NCBI GenBank assembly: GCA_021454005.1
Contig: GCA_021454005.1_3939.2
Direction: 5' to 3' (one strand)
Source of the DNA: a phage
DNA: 28,204 nt
Under the pieces are notes generated by a model. It was given only the letters and a program-made list of their open reading frames with translations, did no database searches and was not told the DNA's origin. Position 1 is the stretch's first letter. Each line of letters starts with the position of its first letter. Below, piece after piece: positions 16,204 through 22,927 of the stretch. Both the position numbers and the translations under genes were made by a program.

Positions 16204-17619
16204 ATGAGCGAATTATTTAAACATGCGCACCTTCATGCAGGTCGAACTGAAAATGGTGCTGTAAACCATACTTCATCAATGTCTGCTCTTGTAGACTTTT
16301 ACAAAGCTGCTGGTTCAAGCCGTAGCAACGTAGAAATCTTACCAGACCTGTTCTACAAAGCTTTGCGTGAGGATGTTGATGTTGCAGTTCGTATTTTGCT
16401 TCATATGCGAGATGTACGAGAAGGTATGGGTGAGCGTAAAGCCTTCAGAACTGTTTTACTTCAAGCGATTGAAGACAAAGTTTTAGAGCCTACGCAGGTT
16501 CTTCGCATTATGGATAAGATTGCAGAACTTGGTCGTTTTGATGACTTCAAAATCTTCGTAGGTACTCGTTTCGAGACAGATGCCTTCAAACATCTAGAAG
16601 CAGCATTACTAGACCCTGCAACAGCAGGTTTGGCGGCTAAGTGGTTACCACGAGTCAAACCACGTCATAAGCAGTTTGTAAAACGTTTCTGCAAGTTTGC
16701 CAACTTGAGTGAGAAAGAGTACCGCACACTGTTGTCTGCACTATCTGATACAGTTGAGCAAAAAATCTCTGCTAATGAGTTTGGTAAGATTGACTACAGT
16801 AAGATTCCTTCACTTGCTGCTGCACGTTACCAAAAACTGTTTAACCGCAAAGATGGAGAACGCTACAAAGCTTACATCGAGTCCTTATCAAAGGGTGAGG
16901 CTAAGATTAATGCTGGTGCTGTTTACCCATACGATGTAATTAAATCTGTTAAGCATGGTAATGCAGATGTTGCTAATGAGCAGTGGAAAGCACTACCAAA
17001 CTGGATGGCAGAGGGTGAAAACATCTTGTGTATGTCTGATGTTTCAAGCTCAATGTCTTGGGTGAATTTTGGTTCAATTACTGCTCTTGATATTGGTGTT
17101 TCACTTGCATTGTATGTAGCAGAACGTAATACAGGTTGCTTTAAGAATGAGTTGATGGTTTATTCAACAAACCCTCACTTCATCGAACTGAGTGGTGATT
17201 TACGAAACCGTCATCGTCAGGTGATGCGACACGTTGAATATGGCTCAACTAACTTACAAGCAGCTTTTGACCGTATTCTTGAAACAGGTAAAAGAAACAA
17301 CTTGACTCAGAAAGATATGCCAAGTAAGCTTATCATCTTCTCCGATATGGAGTTCAATCAGGTTGATGGAGCTAACGGTCGTACAAACTTTGAAGCAATT
17401 CGTAGTAAGTACAAAAAAGCTGGATACGAAATGCCTCAACTGGTATTCTGGTACTTAGCAAACCGTAATGGTACTTGCGAAGTATCTGTTAAGGATAACG
17501 GTGTGGCAATGGTATCTGGTTTTTCTCCAGCTACTTTAAAAGCTCTGCTTGGTGGTGAGAAGTTTGACCCAATCAGCGTAATGCTCAAAGCAGTAATGAT
17601 TGACCGTTATATCTGGTAA
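16204..17619 (+). CDS. vWA-domain protein (MIDAS motif D-x-S-x-S) with N-terminal region resembling DUF2828/TROVE-like proteins
   Basis: 471-aa ORF; DVSSSMS (MIDAS-like) at about residue 280 and downstream IIFSDMEF; N-terminal TENGA...SALVDFY...R..DVREGMGER pattern recalled from DUF2828-type proteins. Confidence 0.7.
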   Translation: MSELFKHAHLHAGRTENGAVNHTSSMSALVDFYKAAGSSRSNVEILPDLFYKALREDVDVAVRILLHMRDVREGMGERKAFRTVLLQAIEDKVLEPTQVLRIMDKIAELGRFDDFKIFVGTRFETDAFKHLEAALLDPATAGLAAKWLPRVKPRHKQFVKRFCKFANLSEKEYRTLLSALSDTVEQKISANEFGKIDYSKIPSLAAARYQKLFNRKDGERYKAYIESLSKGEAKINAGAVYPYDVIKSVKHGNADVANEQWKALPNWMAEGENILCMSDVSSSMSWVNFGSITALDIGVSLALYVAERNTGCFKNELMVYSTNPHFIELSGDLRNRHRQVMRHVEYGSTNLQAAFDRILETGKRNNLTQKDMPSKLIIFSDMEFNQVDGANGRTNFEAIRSKYKKAGYEMPQLVFWYLANRNGTCEVSVKDNGVAMVSGFSPATLKALLGGEKFDPISVMLKAVMIDRYIW

Positions 17620-17784: not shown

Positions 17785-17861
17785 CTCTGTTTAGCTCAGC
17801 TTGGTAGAGCGTTCCGTTTGGGGCGGTAAGGCCGGAGGTTCAAGTCCTCCAACAGAGACCA
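17785..17861 (+). tRNA. tRNA-Pro (anticodon TGG)
   Basis: hand-folded cloverleaf: acceptor CTCTGTT/AACAGAG, anticodon loop TTTGGGG, T arm GGAGG-TTCAAGT-CCTCC, CCA encoded. Confidence 0.7.
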
Positions 17862-17868
17862 AATTAAT

Positions 17869-17946
17869 GTTCCAGTAGACAAAATGGTAAAGTCACCACT
17901 CTTTCAAAGTGGATATCTGAGGGTTCAAATCCCTTCTGGAACGCCA
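17869..17946 (+). tRNA. tRNA-Glu (anticodon TTC)
   Basis: acceptor GTTCCAG/CTGGAAC, anticodon stem CCACT/AGTGG, loop CTTTCAA, T-loop TTCAAAT, CCA encoded. Confidence 0.75.
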
Positions 17947-17953
17947 GTTTTGA

Positions 17954-18025
17954 CAGAAGACCAATTACAGCAAGCTTAATCTACTCATCTGACACGAAAT
18001 CGGACAAAGAAGATATTTGGTCTGG
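17954..18025 (+). ncRNA. spacer element copy 1: CAGAAGACCAA..TACAGCAAG...TTGGTCTGG (terminal 7-bp stem AGACCAA/TTGGTCT)
   Basis: conserved ends and covarying stem shared with copies at 18120, 18507, 18594. Confidence 0.5.
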
Positions 18026-18036
18026 TCATTGAGAAT

Positions 18037-18113
18037 TGCGGGTATAGAGAAAGGGCGTCTCACATGTCTCATTAGCATGGTATCGGCAGGTTCGACTCCT
18101 GCACCCGCCTCCA
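18037..18113 (+). tRNA. tRNA-Met (anticodon CAT)
   Basis: acceptor (T)GCGGGT/ACCCGC(C) with one unpaired position, anticodon stem CATGT/GCATG, loop CTCATTA, T arm GCAGG-TTCGACT-CCTGC, CCA encoded. Confidence 0.6.
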
Positions 18114-18119
18114 ATTTTG

Positions 18120-18179
18120 CAGAAGACCGTATTCAGCAACAAAATACTTTTTGCGGATAAAAGAAAAAACACGGTCTGG
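18120..18179 (+). ncRNA. spacer element copy 2: CAGAAGACCGT..TTCAGCAAC...ACGGTCTGG (stem AGACCGT/ACGGTCT)
   Basis: same architecture as copy 1 with a compensatory change in the stem. Confidence 0.5.
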
Positions 18180-18190
18180 CAATGTATTAA

Positions 18191-18267
18191 GGTTAGGAAG
18201 CACATAAGGTATGTGCGGTCGCCTGTTAAGCGAATGGCACAGGGTTCGAATCCCTGACTAACCGCCA
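18191..18267 (+). tRNA. tRNA-Asn (anticodon GTT)
   Basis: acceptor GGTTAGG/ACTAACC (one mismatch at 7-66), D stem GCAC/GTGC, loop CTGTTAA, T arm CAGGG-TTCGAAT-CCCTG, CCA encoded. Confidence 0.65.
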
Positions 18268-18275
18268 AATTAAAT

Positions 18276-18363
18276 GTGTCGTTATCCCGTAGATGGTAGC
18301 GGTGGGGACTGTAAATCCCTTGTCATTGAGACTCGGTAGGTTCGACTCCTACACGGCACACCA
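18276..18363 (+). tRNA. tRNA-Tyr (anticodon GTA), long variable arm
   Basis: acceptor GTGTCGT/ACGGCAC, loop CTGTAAA, variable stem GTC-ATTGA-GAC, T arm GTAGG-TTCGACT-CCTAC, CCA encoded. Confidence 0.7.
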
Positions 18364-18368
18364 ATAAA

Positions 18369-18445
18369 GGCTATGTAGTTTAACTGGAGAAAATACTCCC
18401 CTGTCACGGGAGATGATGTGAGTTCAAGTCTCATCGTAGCCGCCA
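18369..18445 (+). tRNA. tRNA-Asp (anticodon GTC)
   Basis: acceptor GGCTATG/CGTAGCC, anticodon stem CTCCC/GGGAG, loop CTGTCAC, T-loop TTCAAGT, CCA encoded. Confidence 0.75.
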
Positions 18446-18506
18446 ATTTTGAGAGGGCTATTTAGCCCCTCCCTTAAAGAGTTCTTACGAGTATTCTTTA
18501 AAGGAG

Positions 18507-18580
18507 CAGAAGACCAAATACAGCAAGAATGTATGAAATTTCAAGCCAATTTAATTTTGAAAATTTAAAACTTGGTCTGG
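18507..18580 (+). ncRNA. spacer element copy 3: CAGAAGACCAA..TACAGCAAG...TTGGTCTGG
   Basis: same architecture; stem AGACCAA/TTGGTCT. Confidence 0.5.
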
Positions 18581-18593
18581 CTCAACAAATTTA

Positions 18594-18725
18594 CAGAAGA
18601 CCGTTTACAGCAAAACTTAAACAATCTATTTCTCCGGTAAAGAAAAGGCGAAGGTTCGATTCCTTCACTCGGCAGATGTCGAGTTGGTGTAATGGTAGCA
18701 CTTAAGATGATAAACAACGGTCTGG
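18594..18725 (+). ncRNA. spacer element copy 4 (long form) with terminal stem AGACCGTT/AACGGTCT, containing tRNA-half-like hairpins
   Basis: CAGAAGACCGTTTACAGCAAA at the 5' end and AACGGTCTGG at the 3' end; interior carries a T-arm-like hairpin, an acceptor-like hairpin and a D-arm-like hairpin. Confidence 0.45.
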
Positions 18726-18726
18726 T

Positions 18727-18870
18727 AATTATCTTTGTAGATAAGTTATTAAGCTTACATGTGAGTATGCGACCACAAAGGGTGAAAGGGTAAATTCTAG
18801 ATTTAAACCCAAAAAGGCACATCGCTACAGACCTTAAGCAAGTCTGGGTAGCTTATCTACAAAGATAATT
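18727..18870. repeat. 19-bp perfect inverted repeat (AATTATCTTTGTAGATAAG / CTTATCTACAAAGATAATT) flanking 106 nt
   Basis: arms at 18727-18745 and 18852-18870; could be a long-stem RNA or a miniature inverted-repeat element. Confidence 0.6.
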
Positions 18871-18874
18871 TAAT

Positions 18875-18950
18875 GGAAGTGTAGCAGAATGGTGATGCGG
18901 CAGACTTTTAATCTGACAGGCGATGGGTTCGAATCCCTCCACTTCTACCA
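18875..18950 (+). tRNA. tRNA-Lys (anticodon TTT)
   Basis: acceptor GGAAGTG/CACTTCT (G1.U72), loop CTTTTAA, T-loop TTCGAAT, CCA encoded; close paralog of the tRNA at 20101. Confidence 0.65.
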
Positions 18951-18954
18951 ATAT

Positions 18955-19031
18955 GGTTCAGTCGCAGATAAGGTAATGCAAGGGTCTCATAAGCCCTATG
19001 AATGTGGGTTCGATTCCCATCTGAACCTCCA
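18955..19031 (+). tRNA. tRNA with anticodon CAT (Met, initiator, or Ile2/lysidine type)
   Basis: acceptor GGTTCAG/CTGAACC, anticodon stem AGGGT/GCCCT (three G-C pairs), loop CTCATAA, T arm GTGGG-TTCGATT-CCCAT, CCA encoded. Confidence 0.65.
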
Positions 19032-19032
19032 A

Positions 19033-19108
19033 GCTGGTATAGTTAAGAAGGTTATAACACTCCCCTGATAAGGGAACATCGGTGGTTCGATTCCACCTAC
19101 CAGTACCA
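19033..19108 (+). tRNA. tRNA-Ile (anticodon GAT)
   Basis: acceptor GCTGGTA/TACCAGT, D stem GTTA/TAAC, loop CTGATAA, T arm GGTGG-TTCGATT-CCACC, CCA encoded. Confidence 0.7.
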
Positions 19109-19123
19109 ATTTCAATAAAGTTG

Positions 19124-19152
19124 TTGACATTGAGATGTGACTACTTTATAGT
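19124..19152 (+). promoter_or_regulatory. sigma70-like promoter TTGACA-N17-TATAGT inside the tRNA array
   Basis: hexamers at 19124-19129 and 19147-19152; about 200 nt of unassigned sequence follows before the next tRNA. Confidence 0.6.
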
Positions 19153-19355
19153 AACCTTAGTTTTCGTTGCGTAGCGTCTATTTTGCAAATTTAAAATAAA
19201 TGCAAACGACAATGTTTTTCTGGCAGTAGCTTGATAGGCTAAACACCAGTGAGGTCTTCCAATCCCTCATCAAAGAATTTGGCGTACTAGCCCACGGTAT
19301 GATTAATAAGGTGGGCATCTTTAAGGGCTTTCTAAGAGAGTCTTTAAAGATTAAT

Positions 19356-19432
19356 GCACCCTTAGTTCAATTGGATAGAGCAACGGTCTTCTAAATCGTT
19401 AGTTACAGGTTCGAATCCTGTAGGGTGTGCCA
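19356..19432 (+). tRNA. tRNA-Arg (anticodon TCT)
   Basis: acceptor GCACCCT/AGGGTGT, D arm GTTC-AATTGGATA-GAGC, anticodon stem ACGGT/ATCGT, loop CTTCTAA, T arm ACAGG-TTCGAAT-CCTGT, CCA encoded. Confidence 0.75.
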
Positions 19433-19450
19433 ATTAGTTAGCAGATTACT

Positions 19451-19490
19451 TAGACGACCTAAGCGGGTCTTCCTGTAGGGAGGTGGTCTG
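19451..19490 (+). ncRNA. possible degenerate fifth copy of the AGACC...GGTCTG spacer element
   Basis: TAGACGACC...GGTGGTCTG with 6 of 7 stem positions pairing; weaker match. Confidence 0.25.
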
Positions 19491-19574
19491 TATCTCATGT
19501 TTTCCAGAACATGTAAATAATCTGAGAAGGGGCTTTACAGTGTTGAGATAATACGGTAAGCTTCGAATTACAGT

Positions 19575-19657
19575 ATGGGACGATGTTAAGACTCTAAGGC
19601 ATGAGCAACGGCCTCCAAAACCGTTTCAAAGGGGTTCAACTCCTCCGTCCCATGCCA
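19575..19657 (+). tRNA. tRNA-Trp (anticodon CCA), atypical (about 7 extra nt between acceptor stem and D arm)
   Basis: acceptor ATGGGAC/GTCCCAT (7 of 7), anticodon stem ACGGC/ACCGT with loop CTCCAAA, T arm AGGGG-TTCAACT-CCTCC, CCA encoded; D region does not fold canonically by hand. Confidence 0.5.
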
Positions 19658-19670
19658 AAGTCTTATTAGG

Positions 19671-19758
19671 GGTAGGTAGCGGCTAATGGTAGCCAAACTG
19701 TCTTGAAAACAGTTGCCACTGTAGAGATACGGTGAGGGTTCGACTCCTTTACTTACCG
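19671..19758 (+). tRNA. tRNA-Ser (anticodon TGA), long variable arm
   Basis: acceptor GGTAGGT/ACTTACC, anticodon stem ACTGT/ACAGT, loop CTTGAAA, long variable arm, T-loop TTCGACT; CCA not fully encoded. Confidence 0.7.
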
Positions 19759-19914
19759 CCTAATAAGATTTACACCGTCCATGCTTGCTCGCATTTTCGG
19801 TTTATCCCTCGTGTATTGTCGTACACTGATAAAGCACCTAGTAGGTGTCACGGAGAAGAGATAATATCAAGCTCTCCAAAGGTTCTAGTCACCGGATTAA
19901 ACAAGACTATGCAA

Positions 19915-19935
19915 AGACCTATTTAGGTCTTTTTA
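19915..19935 (+). terminator. intrinsic terminator AGACCT-ATTT-AGGTCT-TTTTT within the tRNA array
   Basis: perfect 6-bp inverted repeat plus T5. Confidence 0.6.
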
Positions 19936-20014
19936 GAGGGCTTCTAAGGTTATTAGTCGCTTGTTGTGGAACCTTGTTGCTCAGGTTCTTAGAAGTTCTC
20001 TAAAAAGATTTAAT

Positions 20015-20093
20015 GGGAGATTGACGGCAACTTGGTAGACCTATCTCGCTTAGAACGAGATGCTTGAGGGTTCGAATCCCTTGTCTCCTACCA
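20015..20093 (+). tRNA. tRNA with anticodon TAG (Leu by the standard code) but a short variable arm
   Basis: acceptor GGGAGAT/GTCTCCT, anticodon stem (A)TCTCG/CGAGA(T), loop CTTAGAA, variable region about 4 nt, T arm GAGGG-TTCGAAT-CCCTT, A73, CCA encoded. Confidence 0.55.
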
Positions 20094-20100
20094 AATTAAT

Positions 20101-20176
20101 GCAGGTGTAGCAAAATGGTTATGCGGCTGACTCTTAATCAGTAAGACGATGGGTTCAATTCCCTCCACCTGTACCA
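20101..20176 (+). tRNA. tRNA-Lys (anticodon CTT)
   Basis: acceptor GCAGGTG/CACCTGT, anticodon stem GCTGA/TCAGT, loop CTCTTAA, T-loop TTCAATT, CCA encoded. Confidence 0.65.
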
Positions 20177-20182
20177 GACATT

Positions 20183-20258
20183 GGGGATGTAGTTTACATG
20201 GTTAAAACATAAGTTTTGCAAACTTAAGTACAGGGTTCAATTCCCTGCTTCTCCACCA
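20183..20258 (+). tRNA. tRNA-Ala (anticodon TGC)
   Basis: acceptor GGGGATG/CTTCTCC with a G3.U70 pair (Ala identity element), D stem GTTT/AAAC, anticodon stem TAAGT/ACTTA, loop TTTGCAA, CCA encoded. Confidence 0.75.
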
Positions 20259-20264
20259 ATTAGT

Positions 20265-20339
20265 GCATCCATAGTTTAAACGGGAAAATTACAGTCTTCC
20301 AAACTGAGGTTGAGGGTTCGATTCCCTCTGGATGCTCCA
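20265..20339 (+). tRNA. tRNA-Gly (anticodon TCC)
   Basis: acceptor GCATCCA/TGGATGC, loop CTTCCAA, T arm GAGGG-TTCGATT-CCCTC, CCA encoded. Confidence 0.7.
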
Positions 20340-20346
20340 AATTAAT

Positions 20347-20422
20347 GCTCCTATCGTATAATTGGCTATTACGGTTGCCTTGTAAGCAACTTATCAGGGT
20401 TCGAATCCTTGTGGGAGCACCA
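20347..20422 (+). tRNA. tRNA-Thr (anticodon TGT)
   Basis: acceptor GCTCCTA/TGGGAGC, anticodon stem GTTGC/GCAAC, loop CTTGTAA, T-loop TTCGAAT, CCA encoded. Confidence 0.75.
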
Positions 20423-20517
20423 ATTCAGAGGTCAAGTGAAAGACCGCTGGTGTCAACTGAAGACCGTAACAAATTCCACGGAGTTGAGTTAGCGGCACAA
20501 CTTCAGACCTCTTTCAT

Positions 20518-20592
20518 GCTCGCTTAGTTTATATGGTAAAACATCACCCTTACAAGATGAAGAAAAAGGTTCAAGTCCTTTAGTGAGTACCA
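20518..20592 (+). tRNA. tRNA-Val (anticodon TAC)
   Basis: acceptor GCTCGCT/AGTGAGT (two G.U pairs), D stem GTTT/AAAC, loop CTTACAA, T arm AAAGG-TTCAAGT-CCTTT, CCA encoded. Confidence 0.65.
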
Positions 20593-20593
20593 T

Positions 20594-20671
20594 GTTCCAG
20601 TATCCCAATTGGCAGAGGATGCAAGCTCAAACCTTGTATTAGTGACGGTTCGAATCCGTCTTGGAACACCA
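20594..20671 (+). tRNA. tRNA with anticodon CAA (Leu by the standard code) but a short variable arm
   Basis: acceptor GTTCCAG/TTGGAAC, D arm ATCC-CAATTGGCAGA-GGAT, anticodon stem GCAAG/CTTGT, loop CTCAAAC, variable region about 6 nt, T arm GACGG-TTCGAAT-CCGTC, A73, CCA encoded. Confidence 0.55.
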
Positions 20672-20676
20672 ATTTT

Positions 20677-20752
20677 GCAGGATTAGTTCAAATGGATAGA
20701 GCAACAGTCTACGAAGCTGTTAATAGGGGTTCGAATCCCTTATCCTGCGCCA
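20677..20752 (+). tRNA. tRNA-Arg (anticodon ACG)
   Basis: acceptor GCAGGAT/ATCCTGC (7 of 7), D arm GTTC-AAATGGATA-GAGC, anticodon stem ACAGT/GCTGT, loop CTACGAA, CCA encoded. Confidence 0.8.
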
Positions 20753-20769
20753 GATAAAAAGGTGATACT

Positions 20770-21012
20770 ATGCAAACATTAACAGTAGTTGAACATGAAA
20801 ACTGTGAGAATATTGAGTTTGTCAGGGTCATTGGTGTTGAACACCACATTTTCTTAAAAGTAGGGTACTTATGTGACCCCGCTAGAGTAGAAAGATTTAT
20901 ACGTGATTGTTTTGGTGGTAGACAGCTAAAGAGTGTTATTTTTGAGACAGTTTTACCAGAAGGTTTAGAAACGAATAATAACATTTATCTCCTTACAAGG
21001 ATTAGACGATGA
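20770..21012 (+). CDS. hypothetical protein (80 aa) embedded in the tRNA array
   Basis: AAGGTGA 5 nt upstream of ATG; stop overlaps the next start (ATGA). Confidence 0.55.
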   Translation: MQTLTVVEHENCENIEFVRVIGVEHHIFLKVGYLCDPARVERFIRDCFGGRQLKSVIFETVLPEGLETNNNIYLLTRIRR

Positions 21013-21566
21013 GATATTTAAAATATGCTTCATGGATTTTCCTAGCTTTGCTAGAACCATTAGCAGCAACCTTAGCAGTTATCTTAGCACCTTTCGTAGT
21101 TCCATTTTACAGTGAGAAGAAAGGCCACTTACCTTTCGGATTTAGATGGATGGAGACATATGACAACCCAATTGATGGTGACGAAGGTCATATCGAACGA
21201 TGGGCTAAGATTAGAAAGATTGGTAAGCTGGGTGTCTACATGCAGAGAGTCGGATGGCTCTGGAGAAACAAAGCTTATAACTTCTCTTACCATGTATTAG
21301 GAAGAGATGTAAAAGATGTTACTAAGTGGAAAGGTAATATCAACGTAAGTTCTGACCCTGAAGATAATCAGACAGGTTATCTCCTAATGTGGAACAGTAA
21401 TGCTTGGGGATTATTCGCTTTTATCCCATCAATTAAAGTCTTTGGTAAACAGTTTTACTGGAGAATTTATATTGGATGGAAACTAAAAAGTGTTGTCCCA
21501 GAAGAAAGAGCATTCTCAAGGGAAAGAGTTATGTTGGCATTCTTTATTCATCCACTGAGAAAGTAA
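21009..21566 (+). CDS. hypothetical membrane protein (185 aa, N-terminal TM segment)
   Basis: translationally coupled to the upstream ORF; N-terminus WIFLALLEPLAATLAVILAPFVVPF is hydrophobic. Confidence 0.6.
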   Translation: MRYLKYASWIFLALLEPLAATLAVILAPFVVPFYSEKKGHLPFGFRWMETYDNPIDGDEGHIERWAKIRKIGKLGVYMQRVGWLWRNKAYNFSYHVLGRDVKDVTKWKGNINVSSDPEDNQTGYLLMWNSNAWGLFAFIPSIKVFGKQFYWRIYIGWKLKSVVPEERAFSRERVMLAFFIHPLRK

Positions 21567-21574
21567 AGATTTAA

Positions 21575-21650
21575 AGGGGATTAGTTTACAAGGTTAAAAC
21601 CTCGGTCTTTGAAATCGAAGAAGTTGGTTCAATTCCAACATCCCCCGCCA
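21575..21650 (+). tRNA. tRNA-Gln (anticodon TTG)
   Basis: acceptor AGGGGAT/ATCCCCC (position 1-72 unpaired A.C), D stem GTTT/AAAC, anticodon stem TCGGT/ATCGA, loop CTTTGAA, T arm GTTGG-TTCAATT-CCAAC, CCA encoded. Confidence 0.65.
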
Positions 21651-21652
21651 AT

Positions 21653-21731
21653 GCTCCATTACTCCAATTGGCAGAGAGGCCAGACTTAAAATCTGTGTTA
21701 TGTATCGGTTCGAATCCGATATGGAGTACCA
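21653..21731 (+). tRNA. tRNA with anticodon TAA (Leu by the standard code) but a short variable arm
   Basis: acceptor GCTCCAT/ATGGAGT, D region CCAATTGGCAGAG, anticodon stem (C)CAGA/TCTG(T), loop CTTAAAA, variable region about 7 nt, T arm ATCGG-TTCGAAT-CCGAT, A73, CCA encoded. Confidence 0.55.
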
Positions 21732-21736
21732 AATTT

Positions 21737-21812
21737 AGCGGTATAGCATAACTGGCAATGCAACAGTCTCTGAAGCTGTCCTATTAAGGTTCAAATCCTT
21801 ATGCCGCTGCCA
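21737..21812 (+). tRNA. tRNA-Gln (anticodon CTG)
   Basis: acceptor AGCGGTA/TGCCGCT, anticodon stem ACAGT/GCTGT, loop CTCTGAA, T arm TAAGG-TTCAAAT-CCTTA, CCA encoded. Confidence 0.65.
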
Positions 21813-21843
21813 CTTCTAAGGGTTCTTACGAGAGTCCTTAAAT

Positions 21844-21919
21844 GTGGCCTTATCATAAATGGTAATGACCCATGCTGTGAACATGGTCTATACGGGTTCA
21901 AATCCCGTAGGTCACCCCA
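21844..21919 (+). tRNA. tRNA-His (anticodon GTG)
   Basis: acceptor GTGGCCT/AGGTCAC, D stem TCAT/ATGA, anticodon stem CCATG/CATGG, loop CTGTGAA, discriminator C73, CCA encoded. Confidence 0.75.
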
Positions 21920-21924
21920 ATTTA

Positions 21925-21999
21925 TAGTCCAAGTAGCTTATATGGTTAAAGCGCGTGTCTGAAAAACATGAGAAGAGGGTTCAAATCCCACTGGACTAC
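21925..21999 (+). tRNA. tRNA-Phe (anticodon GAA)
   Basis: acceptor TAGTCCA/TGGACTA (7 of 7), anticodon stem CGTGT/ACATG, loop CTGAAAA, T-loop TTCAAAT; D arm irregular; CCA only partly encoded. Confidence 0.6.
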
Positions 22000-22017
22000 C
22001 AATTTCAAAGGTGCTTA

Positions 22018-22752
22018 ATGAAAGAGATGACAGAACAAGGTAAGGAGATTTTTAATCTCTTAAAAACCGGTAAAGGGTTTTCTAACCCACTTATTACTGG
22101 TGCAGCAGTTCTCGGTGGAACCGTAGCTGCCTCTACATCACTTGTAAGCTCTATTAGTTCTGTAACAGACCCTACAATGCAGGAGAAACTTGTTGCTGCT
22201 GGACTTACAACAGTCCTTCTAAACAGCTTTACAACAAGCCTTACAAGCACTACAGCAACTACTAAGACCCTGACAGACTACGGTCAAAAATCTATTGATG
22301 AGTTTTCATCACGTATGCAGGTAGCAAAGGGATATTCCAATGTTATGGGTGCAGCAGGAGAACAAGTTGGTTGTACACCGTTCAGTGGTATTATGGGTGT
22401 TGCTACAGAATATGGTCAAAAAGCTATTGATACGATTAACAGTACACTAGAGAGTGTTAACGATGTATTAAGTGACTTACAAGACGCTATTGACAAGGGT
22501 CTTGATACTGTTTCTGATTTAGCTAACCAAGCTGTCAGTAAGATTAATGAAGGTATCTCAAAGATTACAGCTTATGCAGATGAAGTTGTGCAGATGATTG
22601 AAGAAGAAGCTGCCCTTATTGCAGAGTACCTTAAAACGAATATCAATGGGTTCTTAGCAGGTATCTTACCAGACTGGTTTGACGATGCCTGTAAAACTGG
22701 TGTAATTGACACTATTGCAACACCAGAAATGAAGAACGCATTACAGAAATAA
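22018..22752 (+). CDS. hypothetical Ser/Thr/Ala-rich protein (244 aa)
   Basis: ATG 22018 with AAAGG upstream; the ORF-track start 21955 lies inside tRNA-Phe. Confidence 0.6.
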   Translation: MKEMTEQGKEIFNLLKTGKGFSNPLITGAAVLGGTVAASTSLVSSISSVTDPTMQEKLVAAGLTTVLLNSFTTSLTSTTATTKTLTDYGQKSIDEFSSRMQVAKGYSNVMGAAGEQVGCTPFSGIMGVATEYGQKAIDTINSTLESVNDVLSDLQDAIDKGLDTVSDLANQAVSKINEGISKITAYADEVVQMIEEEAALIAEYLKTNINGFLAGILPDWFDDACKTGVIDTIATPEMKNALQK

Positions 22753-22754
22753 AT

Positions 22755-22847
22755 GGAAGATTAACCCTAAAAGGTAAGGGAGCAGTTTGCTAAACTGCCA
22801 GTAGCTGAGAAATCGGTGTACCAGTTCAAGTCTGGTATCTTCCTCCA
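22755..22847 (+). tRNA. tRNA-Ser (anticodon GCT), long variable arm
   Basis: acceptor GGAAGAT/ATCTTCC (7 of 7), anticodon stem GCAGT/ACTGC, loop TTGCTAA, long variable arm, T arm ACCAG-TTCAAGT-CTGGT, CCA encoded. Confidence 0.75.
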
Positions 22848-22851
22848 ATTT

Positions 22852-22927
22852 GAATCCGTGACAGAAATGGCTATGTGCCTGTCTGCAAAACAGGTTTATA
22901 AGGGTTCGAGTCCCTTCGGATTCTCCA
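22852..22927 (+). tRNA. tRNA-Cys (anticodon GCA)
   Basis: acceptor GAATCCG/CGGATTC (7 of 7), anticodon stem CCTGT/ACAGG, loop CTGCAAA, T arm AAGGG-TTCGAGT-CCCTT, CCA encoded. Confidence 0.8.

Follow-up and report, generated by a model that had tools for sequence, protein, structure and literature searches.

Trans-translation is the main ribosome rescue pathway of bacteria and a drug target, and bacterial transfer-messenger RNA (tmRNA, SsrA; Rfam RF00023) is among the described systems closest to the RNA element considered here, which is predicted at positions 19159-19355 (plus strand) within the tRNA array of a phage contig of 28,204 nucleotides (GCA_021454005.1_3939.2; this whole stretch is called the window). 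In Escherichia coli tmRNA the bases U85 and A86 set the frame in which translation resumes, and the A-N-D/E and aromatic residues of the ssrA tag make up its SspB-binding part. The two-piece tmRNAs of alpha-proteobacteria, cyanobacteria and others (RF04321) come closest to being a model for coding pieces that work in trans, since there the tag template is on an RNA separate from the charged 3' end and base-paired with it; both pieces derive from one gene and are joined via the acceptor stem and helix 2. Some phages carry complete tmRNAs (for example the cluster C mycobacteriophages), often beside their tRNA genes. Phage T4 makes species 1 and 2 (rnaC and rnaD), small stable RNAs of its tRNA cluster that are co-transcribed and co-processed with the tRNAs and whose function is not known, and to our knowledge neither has a tag frame or complementarity to tmRNA. 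AgvB and AsxR, the anti-small RNAs or sponges of enterohaemorrhagic E. coli prophages, are phage RNAs that base-pair with abundant host non-coding RNA, their targets being Hfq-dependent small RNAs, and they have no template function. We know of no viral factor targeting tmRNA, and the literature searched contained none.

The element of the window resembles each of several of these systems in part. As in bacterial tmRNA, a GCA resume codon follows an A-U-A context, a ten-codon tag starts with A-N-D/E, has an aromatic residue at position 6 and ends in an alanine-rich C-terminus, the loop of a helix-5-like hairpin contains the stop codon, and H-type pseudoknots follow the tag. Unlike bacterial tmRNA, the phage RNA is without acceptor stem, T arm and CCA (model positions 1-55 and 295-374), has two downstream pseudoknots and not three, has a simple hairpin in place of the upstream pseudoknot 1 (PK1), and is about 197 nucleotides (nt) long compared with 363 nt; and unlike any tmRNA it has a 5' arm that is antisense to tmRNA itself. 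As in two-piece tmRNA, the tag template would be on an RNA separate from the charged 3' end and held to it by base pairing, although here the phage encodes no acceptor piece and its RNA is predicted to pair with the mRNA-like domain of a complete host tmRNA. With the complete phage tmRNAs it shares its carriage by phages and a frequent position beside their tRNA genes, but those are full molecules detected by ARAGORN, whereas this family escapes ARAGORN and has no tRNA-like domain. As with AgvB and AsxR, the lambdoid copies of the family lie in a non-coding stretch of the late region. The combination of a tag template without a tRNA-like domain and an arm antisense to tmRNA is matched by none of these closest known systems. 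Rfam 15 and the literature on phage tmRNA-like RNA, RNA antisense to tmRNA and phage tag peptides yielded no description of the RNA family, and nothing relevant to the RNA was found in the Felixounavirus transcriptome literature.

The window phage is a Felix O1-like myovirus, with 97.8% identity to Felixounavirus AN17P8 and 283 related records. Conservation in relatives had been proposed as a check on the interval 19153-19355, and it reaches beyond relatives into unrelated phage families: a sensitive BLAST search with 19109-19355 matched 596 of 50,697 phage records (about 1% of sequenced phage genomes), always in unannotated DNA and usually near tRNA genes, and the central 100-125 nt are 71-87% identical in unrelated phages (Klebsiella siphoviruses, Det7, Pollock, St11Ph5, swi2, PJ16 and Erwinia phages). 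The carriers comprise lambdoid prophages and, among virulent phages, myoviruses, podoviruses and siphoviruses, and they include Felixounavirus, Erwinia Kolesnikvirus, Ackermannviridae (Det7), Schitoviridae (Pollock, St11Ph5) and several siphoviruses. Two IMG/VR pattern scans together with fetched phage loci supplied 122 members, so that at least 122 phage and prophage loci were assembled, with 68 distinct arm-plus-tag sequences among them. The element is also present, and never annotated, in 137 of 5426 complete E. coli genomes (2.5%). In virulent phages it has its own promoter and adjoins tRNA genes, and in lambdoid prophages it lies in the late leader, flanked by the genes for antiterminator Q and holin. 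In the non-Felix carriers (lambdoid prophages, siphoviruses) the core sits inside RNAs of 500-700 nt with extra long hairpins, some with T-arm-like tips, but their ends are closed and carry no CCA. Overall this is very probably a real and widespread family of structured RNA in enterobacterial phages.

Six of the loci with such 500-700-nt RNAs (L010, L030, L003, L099, L100 and L001) have repeated long hairpins GGUAAGAGCAUUG...CAGUGCUCUUUCC flanked by CACAAC/GUUGUG, some of them tipped by the T-arm-like GGxGGUUCGAAUCCxCC, and a 3' motif CACCACAA that is complementary to UUGUGGUG after the first hairpin.

The tag frame came to light when the window was aligned with a Klebsiella phage and Det7. 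It has no start codon and runs from the GCA resume codon to a stop in the loop of helix 5 (19202-19234, plus strand; GCA AAC GAC AAU GUU UUU CUG GCA GUA GCU UGA), giving the peptide ANDNVFLAVA where the enterobacterial ssrA tag is ANDENYALAA. The hexamer AUAAAU stands directly before the resume codon in the window and in 22 of 26 variants. In sets of 24 to 68 distinct sequences codons 1, 2, 3 and 10 vary at the third position only (GC[A/U], AA[C/U/A], GA[C/U/A] and GC[N]); tag position 6 holds F, Y, V or M, codon 11 is the stop in every case, and the 17 peptide variants fit A-N-[D/E]-x-x-[F/Y/V/M]-L-[A/M]-[V/A]-A. The C-terminus accordingly changes from ALAA in the host to LAVA, LMAA or LAAA in the phages. 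The tmRNA models of Rfam align this region to their own tag with high posterior probability. From the third-position variation, the conservative peptides, the fixed stop and the Rfam alignment we conclude that the frame is a homologue of the tmRNA tag and is under selection as protein.

Upstream of the tag is the second conserved feature, the arm antisense to host tmRNA. Its first nine bases, the seed AGUUUUCGU (19159-19167, plus strand), are the exact reverse complement of nt 97-105 of E. coli ssrA (ACGAAAACU), that is of tag codons Asp3-Glu4-Asn5 and the first base of Tyr6, the ssrA sequence having been verified. The arm as a whole, AGUUUUCGUUGCGUAGCGUCUAUUUUGC (19159-19186, plus strand), is complementary with a few mismatches and bulges to E. 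coli tmRNA nt ~78-106, which cover the linker, the resume codon and tag codons 1-6; across lineages it measures 28-38 nt and spans host nt ~68-106, a region reaching from the 3' side of PK1 past the resume codon as far as tag codon 6. The seed core GUUUUCG is invariant in all 122 members and 68 distinct sequences, the conserved core starting (A/G/U)GUUUUCG(U/G). Contiguous complementarity to host tmRNA nt 96-106 amounts to 8-10 nt in 68 of the 68 distinct sequences, compared with at most 6 nt to their own RNA, and the region that the conserved seed matches is accessible in that nt 99-107 are unpaired in the minimum-energy fold of tmRNA. A second conserved block, GCGAC, pairs with host G87-C91 (GUCGC, which includes the resume codon), and its variants GUGAC, GCGGC, GUGGC and GCGAU all keep the host pairing by way of G-U wobble. 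The arm fits the host and not the phage's own tag, which differs at −3 to −1 (AAU and not GUC) and in codons 4-6.

When the arms are reverse-complemented and aligned locally with ssrA they always land on nt 68-106. The window arm scores 28, a value that none of 200 shuffles reaches, and most arm variants beat all 200 shuffles, with a few Ackermannviridae-type and other single-locus arms being equalled by up to 11% of them. If complete RNAs are compared instead, the arm is the best antisense match to ssrA in all six lineages taken; in this comparison the lambdoid copies score 36 against a shuffle maximum of 24-26, and the window RNA scores 26 against a shuffle mean of 16.9 (standard deviation 2.3). 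The arm-tmRNA duplex predicted by RNAduplex has an energy of −26 kcal/mol for the window and of −23 to −39 kcal/mol across lineages. Host tmRNA nt 68-108 are identical in E. coli, Salmonella, Enterobacter, Raoultella, Erwinia, Pectobacterium, Serratia and Proteus, and such an invariant target explains the invariant seed; nt 97-105 differ in the tmRNAs of Yersinia similis (ACCAAGACU), Photorhabdus (ACGAACAAU) and Aeromonadaceae (ACGAAACCU). A partner for the seed in cis, ACGAAAAC, was sought and is absent from the tRNA array, its matches in the window being at chance level with a single exact plus-strand one, itself unexamined, far upstream at 2339-2346. On this sequence evidence we consider it probable that the phage RNA pairs with host tmRNA.

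Both features sit in a fold that was tested, as five specified elements, on an alignment of 21 sequences (A2) spanning all lineages. The 35 pairs are paired in 91% of cells and 17 of them change on both sides, values that none of 500 shuffles attains, and as a control, sliding the partners by one to three columns lowers pairing to 27-43%. Before the tag, at the place of PK1 in tmRNA, is a hairpin UAUUUUG/UAAAAUA (19179-19198, plus strand, from folding) followed by AUAAAU; it is the weakest element, its equivalent CUUUGCGG/CCACAAAG in other lineages being 77% paired with weak covariation. The elements that follow are on the same strand and are seen by covariation. The helix-5-like hairpin (19220-19249; CUGG...CCAG and an inner stem, with the stop codon in the loop) has an outer stem that is 100% paired, a G-C changing to A-U in four sequences, and an inner stem that is 87% paired with two pairs changed on both sides. 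Pseudoknot A (19250-19282) consists of stem 1 UGAGG/CCUCA (97% paired, three covarying pairs) and of a stem 2 in which the loop CCAA at 19259-19262 pairs with UUGG at 19279-19282 (98% paired, three covarying pairs, as CCAA/UUGG, CCAG/CUGG and CCGA/UCGG). Pseudoknot B (19283-19316) consists of stem 1 CGUAC/GUAUG (97% paired, two covarying pairs) and stem 2 GCCCAC/GUGGGC (93% paired, four covarying pairs), with the conserved loop AUUAAUAA. Set beside the pseudoknot layout of tmRNA there are thus two covarying H-type pseudoknots downstream of the tag, the third downstream pseudoknot is absent, and upstream there is only a hairpin. The RNA closes with a 3' terminal hairpin (19317-19351, plus strand; −17.4 kcal/mol, z = −4.9), which in some Felixounaviruses (L008, L044 and L061-type loci) is replaced by a different one.

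How the RNA would be made is suggested by its borders. A sigma-70-type promoter stands upstream on the plus strand (−35 TTGACA at 19124-19129, a 17-nt spacer and −10 TATAGT at 19147-19152; 11 of 12 consensus positions), where the preliminary description of this DNA had placed a consensus promoter, and its predicted transcription start, at about 19159, is the start of the seed. It is the best-scoring site within 16.5-23.5 kb; taken together, promoter-like sites there number 15 where 13.9 are expected, which is chance frequency and no enrichment, so the weight of this one rests on conservation. It is kept before the element in relatives, even where a hairpin of 89 nt is inserted downstream of it, and has analogues in swi2 and PJ16, where the seed of the homologous element is preceded at a distance of 11 nt by promoters of the form TTGACA-17-TAGATT and TTGACA-17-TATTGT. 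At the other end the terminal hairpin stops 4 nt short of tRNA-Arg(UCU) (19356-19432, plus strand; ARAGORN and Rfam, 62.8 bits), and from this gap we infer release by RNase P, whose cleavage at the 5' end of tRNA-Arg would set the 3' end of the upstream RNA. The RNA then comprises 19159-19355, about 197 nt from the predicted start to tRNA-Arg. ARAGORN and Rfam agree with the preliminary description in finding no tRNA between tRNA-Ile (19033-19108; 62 bits in Rfam) and tRNA-Arg, the next one from 19356, and the open reading frames (ORFs) overlapping 19153-19355 are short mechanical ones of which none is credible, again as it had stated. The Rfam scan it had proposed returns tRNAs alone at gathering thresholds, and weak tmRNA and tmRNA_permuted matches at permissive ones. 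The interval 19153-19355 also folds far better than its shuffles (−58.5 kcal/mol, z = −3.8). The central suggestion of the preliminary description, a promoter-driven stable small RNA co-transcribed with the tRNAs, is therefore supported as a prediction by conservation, covariation and promoter placement.

In some Felixounavirus relatives (L011, L026, L051, L054, L059, L066 and L068) another tRNA-like sequence, GGGGCGUAUCUCAGCGGUCUUCUAAACCGCC...GCGGGUUCGAGUCCUGCCGCC, replaces tRNA-Arg(UCU) downstream of the RNA; it has a UCU anticodon loop, is without a normal D arm and is not called by ARAGORN.

The promoter and tRNA-Arg bound the Felix O1-type RNA, which leaves no room for a tRNA-like domain. 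ARAGORN, a program that detects tmRNAs as well as tRNAs, calls no tmRNA for the window or for some 90 homologous loci taken with 400-500 nt of flank, and the match to the Rfam tmRNA model covers model positions 56-294 only and stays below threshold, at 11.6-15.2 bits where gathering is at 47. The RNA therefore lacks what defines membership of tmRNA, a tRNA-like domain with an acceptor stem bearing G3-U70, a T arm and CCA. Without this domain there would be no charging with alanine and no entry into the ribosome on its own.

A tag that looks translated but has no route to the ribosome, on an RNA whose arm pairs with the sole deliverer of tag templates, suggests docking onto host tmRNA. We hold with moderate confidence, on comparative sequence grounds, that this tmRNA-derived RNA pairs with host tmRNA and then substitutes or blocks the tag template. 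The strong promoter would drive a transcript that also contains the downstream tRNAs, and RNase P would free the RNA at tRNA-Arg; the seed would anneal to the single-stranded tag region of host tmRNA, and the pairing would mask the host resume codon and the first tag codons. The phage hairpin-AUAAAU-GCA template would so be tethered next to host PK1, the tRNA-like domain and SmpB, with the A-U-A context preserved. A stalled ribosome that host tmRNA rescues might then translate the tag of the phage, with the ending ...LAVA, ...LMAA or ...LAAA in place of ...ALAA, and the minimum outcome would be that host tagging is blocked. The more specific proposal of template swapping, in which the RNA docks on host tmRNA as a parasitic coding piece and rescued ribosomes resume on the phage template, is offered tentatively, and seems to us rather less than probable.

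Several points weigh against docking and a swap of template. The pairing with tmRNA is itself a prediction, and for the window alone the arm-tmRNA score is only about four standard deviations above shuffles, with 1-2% of shuffles equalling it. The host target does not vary among the relevant genera, so co-variation between phage and host carries no signal, and the IMG/VR scans returned members with the same seed only. Part of the arm can also fold with the start of the phage's own tag or form the pre-tag hairpin, and in lambdoid, Schitoviridae and some Felixounavirus copies a 5' hairpin precedes the seed, which is then not the 5' end. Loading of a ribosome on a template merely base-paired to tmRNA would need a mechanism of which no example is known, and since the tags LAAA and LMAA resemble ordinary ClpXP degrons, quite what benefit the phage would have from a swap is unclear.

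An alternative is a purely inhibitory role, in which the RNA silences or sequesters tmRNA as an antisense (possibly with cleavage by RNase III) or acts as a decoy for factors of the mRNA-like domain, while the tag frame goes untranslated. The arm and its energetics are the best-supported functional feature, a strong promoter suits stoichiometric titration, and the problem of a trans-paired template with no known loading mechanism does not arise. But although pure inhibition is simpler it leaves the coding signature unexplained, as codon-periodic variation, conservative replacements, a fixed stop and a kept AUA context are hard to account for without translation, nor would a plain antisense RNA need two conserved pseudoknots; we regard it as unlikely.

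Less probable still is an autonomous structured RNA unlinked to host tmRNA, the complementarity of its arm being a relic of the time when a fragment of ssrA was captured and duplicated in inverted orientation, and its role perhaps that of binding SmpB, ribosomal protein S1 or ribosomes, or of a leader or processing element. It is true that the element clearly descends from ssrA sequence, that long versions are embedded in multi-hairpin RNAs of 500-700 nt and that part of the arm doubles as the 5' strand of the pre-tag hairpin. A relic would hardly leave the seed, which has no intramolecular partner, as the most conserved part across otherwise diverged families, or tolerate in the second block exactly those changes that keep wobble pairing with the host, and the phage's own tag has diverged at the very positions that the arm matches.

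Whether the RNA could be one half of a two-piece (permuted) phage tmRNA, its acceptor piece being either one of the adjacent tRNAs or a tRNA-like RNA from another part of the phage that has escaped recognition, was considered in view of a weak Rfam tmRNA_permuted match at 19050-19234 (29 bits, threshold 47) and of the fact that the element always adjoins tRNAs or tRNA-like hairpins. The match borrows the T arm of the genuine tRNA-Ile (62 bits) and drops to 15 bits without it. Neither a role of that tRNA as the acceptor piece nor one of another array member agrees with what is seen, as the T arm is that of a normal tRNA-Ile, the score is below threshold, the array holds no acceptor strand or other complement pairing with the 5' end of the RNA, and ARAGORN finds nothing; the carriers swi2 and PJ16 have no suitable partner nearby either. 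This explanation is accordingly very improbable.

Separately, a possible acceptor piece that was considered is an annotated tRNA-Ala(cgc) in phage St11Ph5 (L098, 1275-1346), whose distance upstream is 112 nt from the seed and 155 nt from the BLAST match; no CCA is encoded in it, and its G-U pair is at 4-69 and not 3-70.

That 19153-19355 is a non-functional spacer, a decayed tRNA or tmRNA pseudogene or a tiny ATG-initiated ORF (ATG at 19200, MQTTMFFWQ*) is scarcely credible, for although the T-arm-like UGAGG...CCUCA, a TTCCAATCCCTC repeat match and the ATG invite such readings, the interval is conserved across families with compensatory changes, the stem in question is stem 1 of covarying pseudoknot A, and in several members the start or the stop of the ATG frame is gone, with radical changes in the residues that it encodes.

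The surroundings of the element are an array of 26 tRNA genes, all on the plus strand, at 17785-22927 (ARAGORN, Rfam). The preliminary description had grouped 19153-19355 with other spacers of the array as similar stretches, and this grouping does not hold, because cross-family conservation belongs to 19153-19355 alone; for the spacers 18446-18874, 19433-19670 and 19761-20014 matches were found in Felixounavirus-like phages only. The hairpins it had listed are present and fold as it described, namely CATGTT-TTCCAG-AACATG at 19497-19514, the nested repeats in 20423-20517 and the motif TTAAGRG-TTCTTACGAG-CTTTAA shared by 18472-18503 and 21817-21842. At 18727-18870 (z = −6.3), 19915-20013 (z = −5.9), 19317-19351 and 21817-21842 there are long and nearly perfect hairpins that stop 1-5 nt short of a tRNA 5' end, and such pre-tRNA hairpins are gained and lost among Felixounaviruses, the 89-nt insertion between promoter and seed in L026-type loci being an instance. 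Since they are lineage-specific, come and go, and end right before tRNAs, those of the other spacers may be RNase processing signals or small mobile or insertion hairpin cassettes. Of the earlier suggestion that the other spacers are small RNAs or processing elements, both parts fit the hairpin pattern, which agrees with processing signals or insertion cassettes as well as with small RNAs.

A tRNA-Trp(CCA)-like gene at 19576-19651 combines a perfect 7-bp acceptor stem and a CCA end with a D arm that is oversized and irregular; it is missed by ARAGORN and by the Rfam tRNA model, has a weak Rfam tRNA-Sec match (23 bits), and at the equivalent position ARAGORN calls tRNA-Trp in the relatives L036 and L054. 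Further upstream, four stem-loop units (~17953-18030, 18119-18181, 18506-18581 and 18593-18727) share a covarying stem, 5' CAGA-AGACC(GU/AA)...ACAGCAA...(AC/UU)GGUCU-GG 3'. The 5' strand of the repeated unit, CAGAAGACCGU (18119-18129 and 18593-18603), agrees as reverse complement with the 5' half of the tRNA-Arg(UCU) anticodon stem-loop, ACGGUCUUCUA (19382-19392), in 10 positions out of 11, which may be chance or tRNA descent. The unit 18593-18727 has a cloverleaf fold in which the acceptor stem is closed by a tetraloop (ACUCGGC-AGAU-GUCGAGU), with T, D and anticodon-like arms, an architecture that is also that of YrlA Y RNAs in bacteria. An ORF at 16204-17619, just before the array, contains DUF2828 and DUF7788 with a vWA-like DxSxS motif and is, going by its sequence, possibly Ro60/TROVE-like; YrlA RNAs adjoining Ro60 genes are known in phages (PMC4201824). 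The stem-loop units at 17953-18727 have no match in Rfam, and the ORF has no sequence match in PDB. That same ORF had suggested a Y RNA or YrlA identity for 19153-19355 too, and this was rejected because the architecture does not fit: the T-arm-like UGAGG/CCUCA is a pseudoknot stem, there is no terminal stem joining 5' and 3' ends, and no Rfam Y RNA or YrlA match.

For those who annotate genomes the family is a new RNA gene in many therapeutic phages (Felixounavirus, Kuttervirus, Klebsiella phages). Docking onto host tmRNA is directly testable as a hypothesis, for it specifies a seed of 9 nt and the target of that seed, and predicts a peptide tag visible by mass spectrometry. A plausible setting for it is that of host defences which cleave tRNA or mRNA and so stall ribosomes. 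Were template swapping to be true, a tag template could work without its own tRNA-like domain, a third template would enter one translation event, and the degradation tag would be rewritten on all proteins rescued during infection; this would be the first virus to reprogramme trans-translation and the first natural tmRNA hybrid between two organisms. And if the RNA either blocks or rewrites the ssrA tag, phage tRNA arrays would be linked to the control of ribosome rescue and proteolysis.

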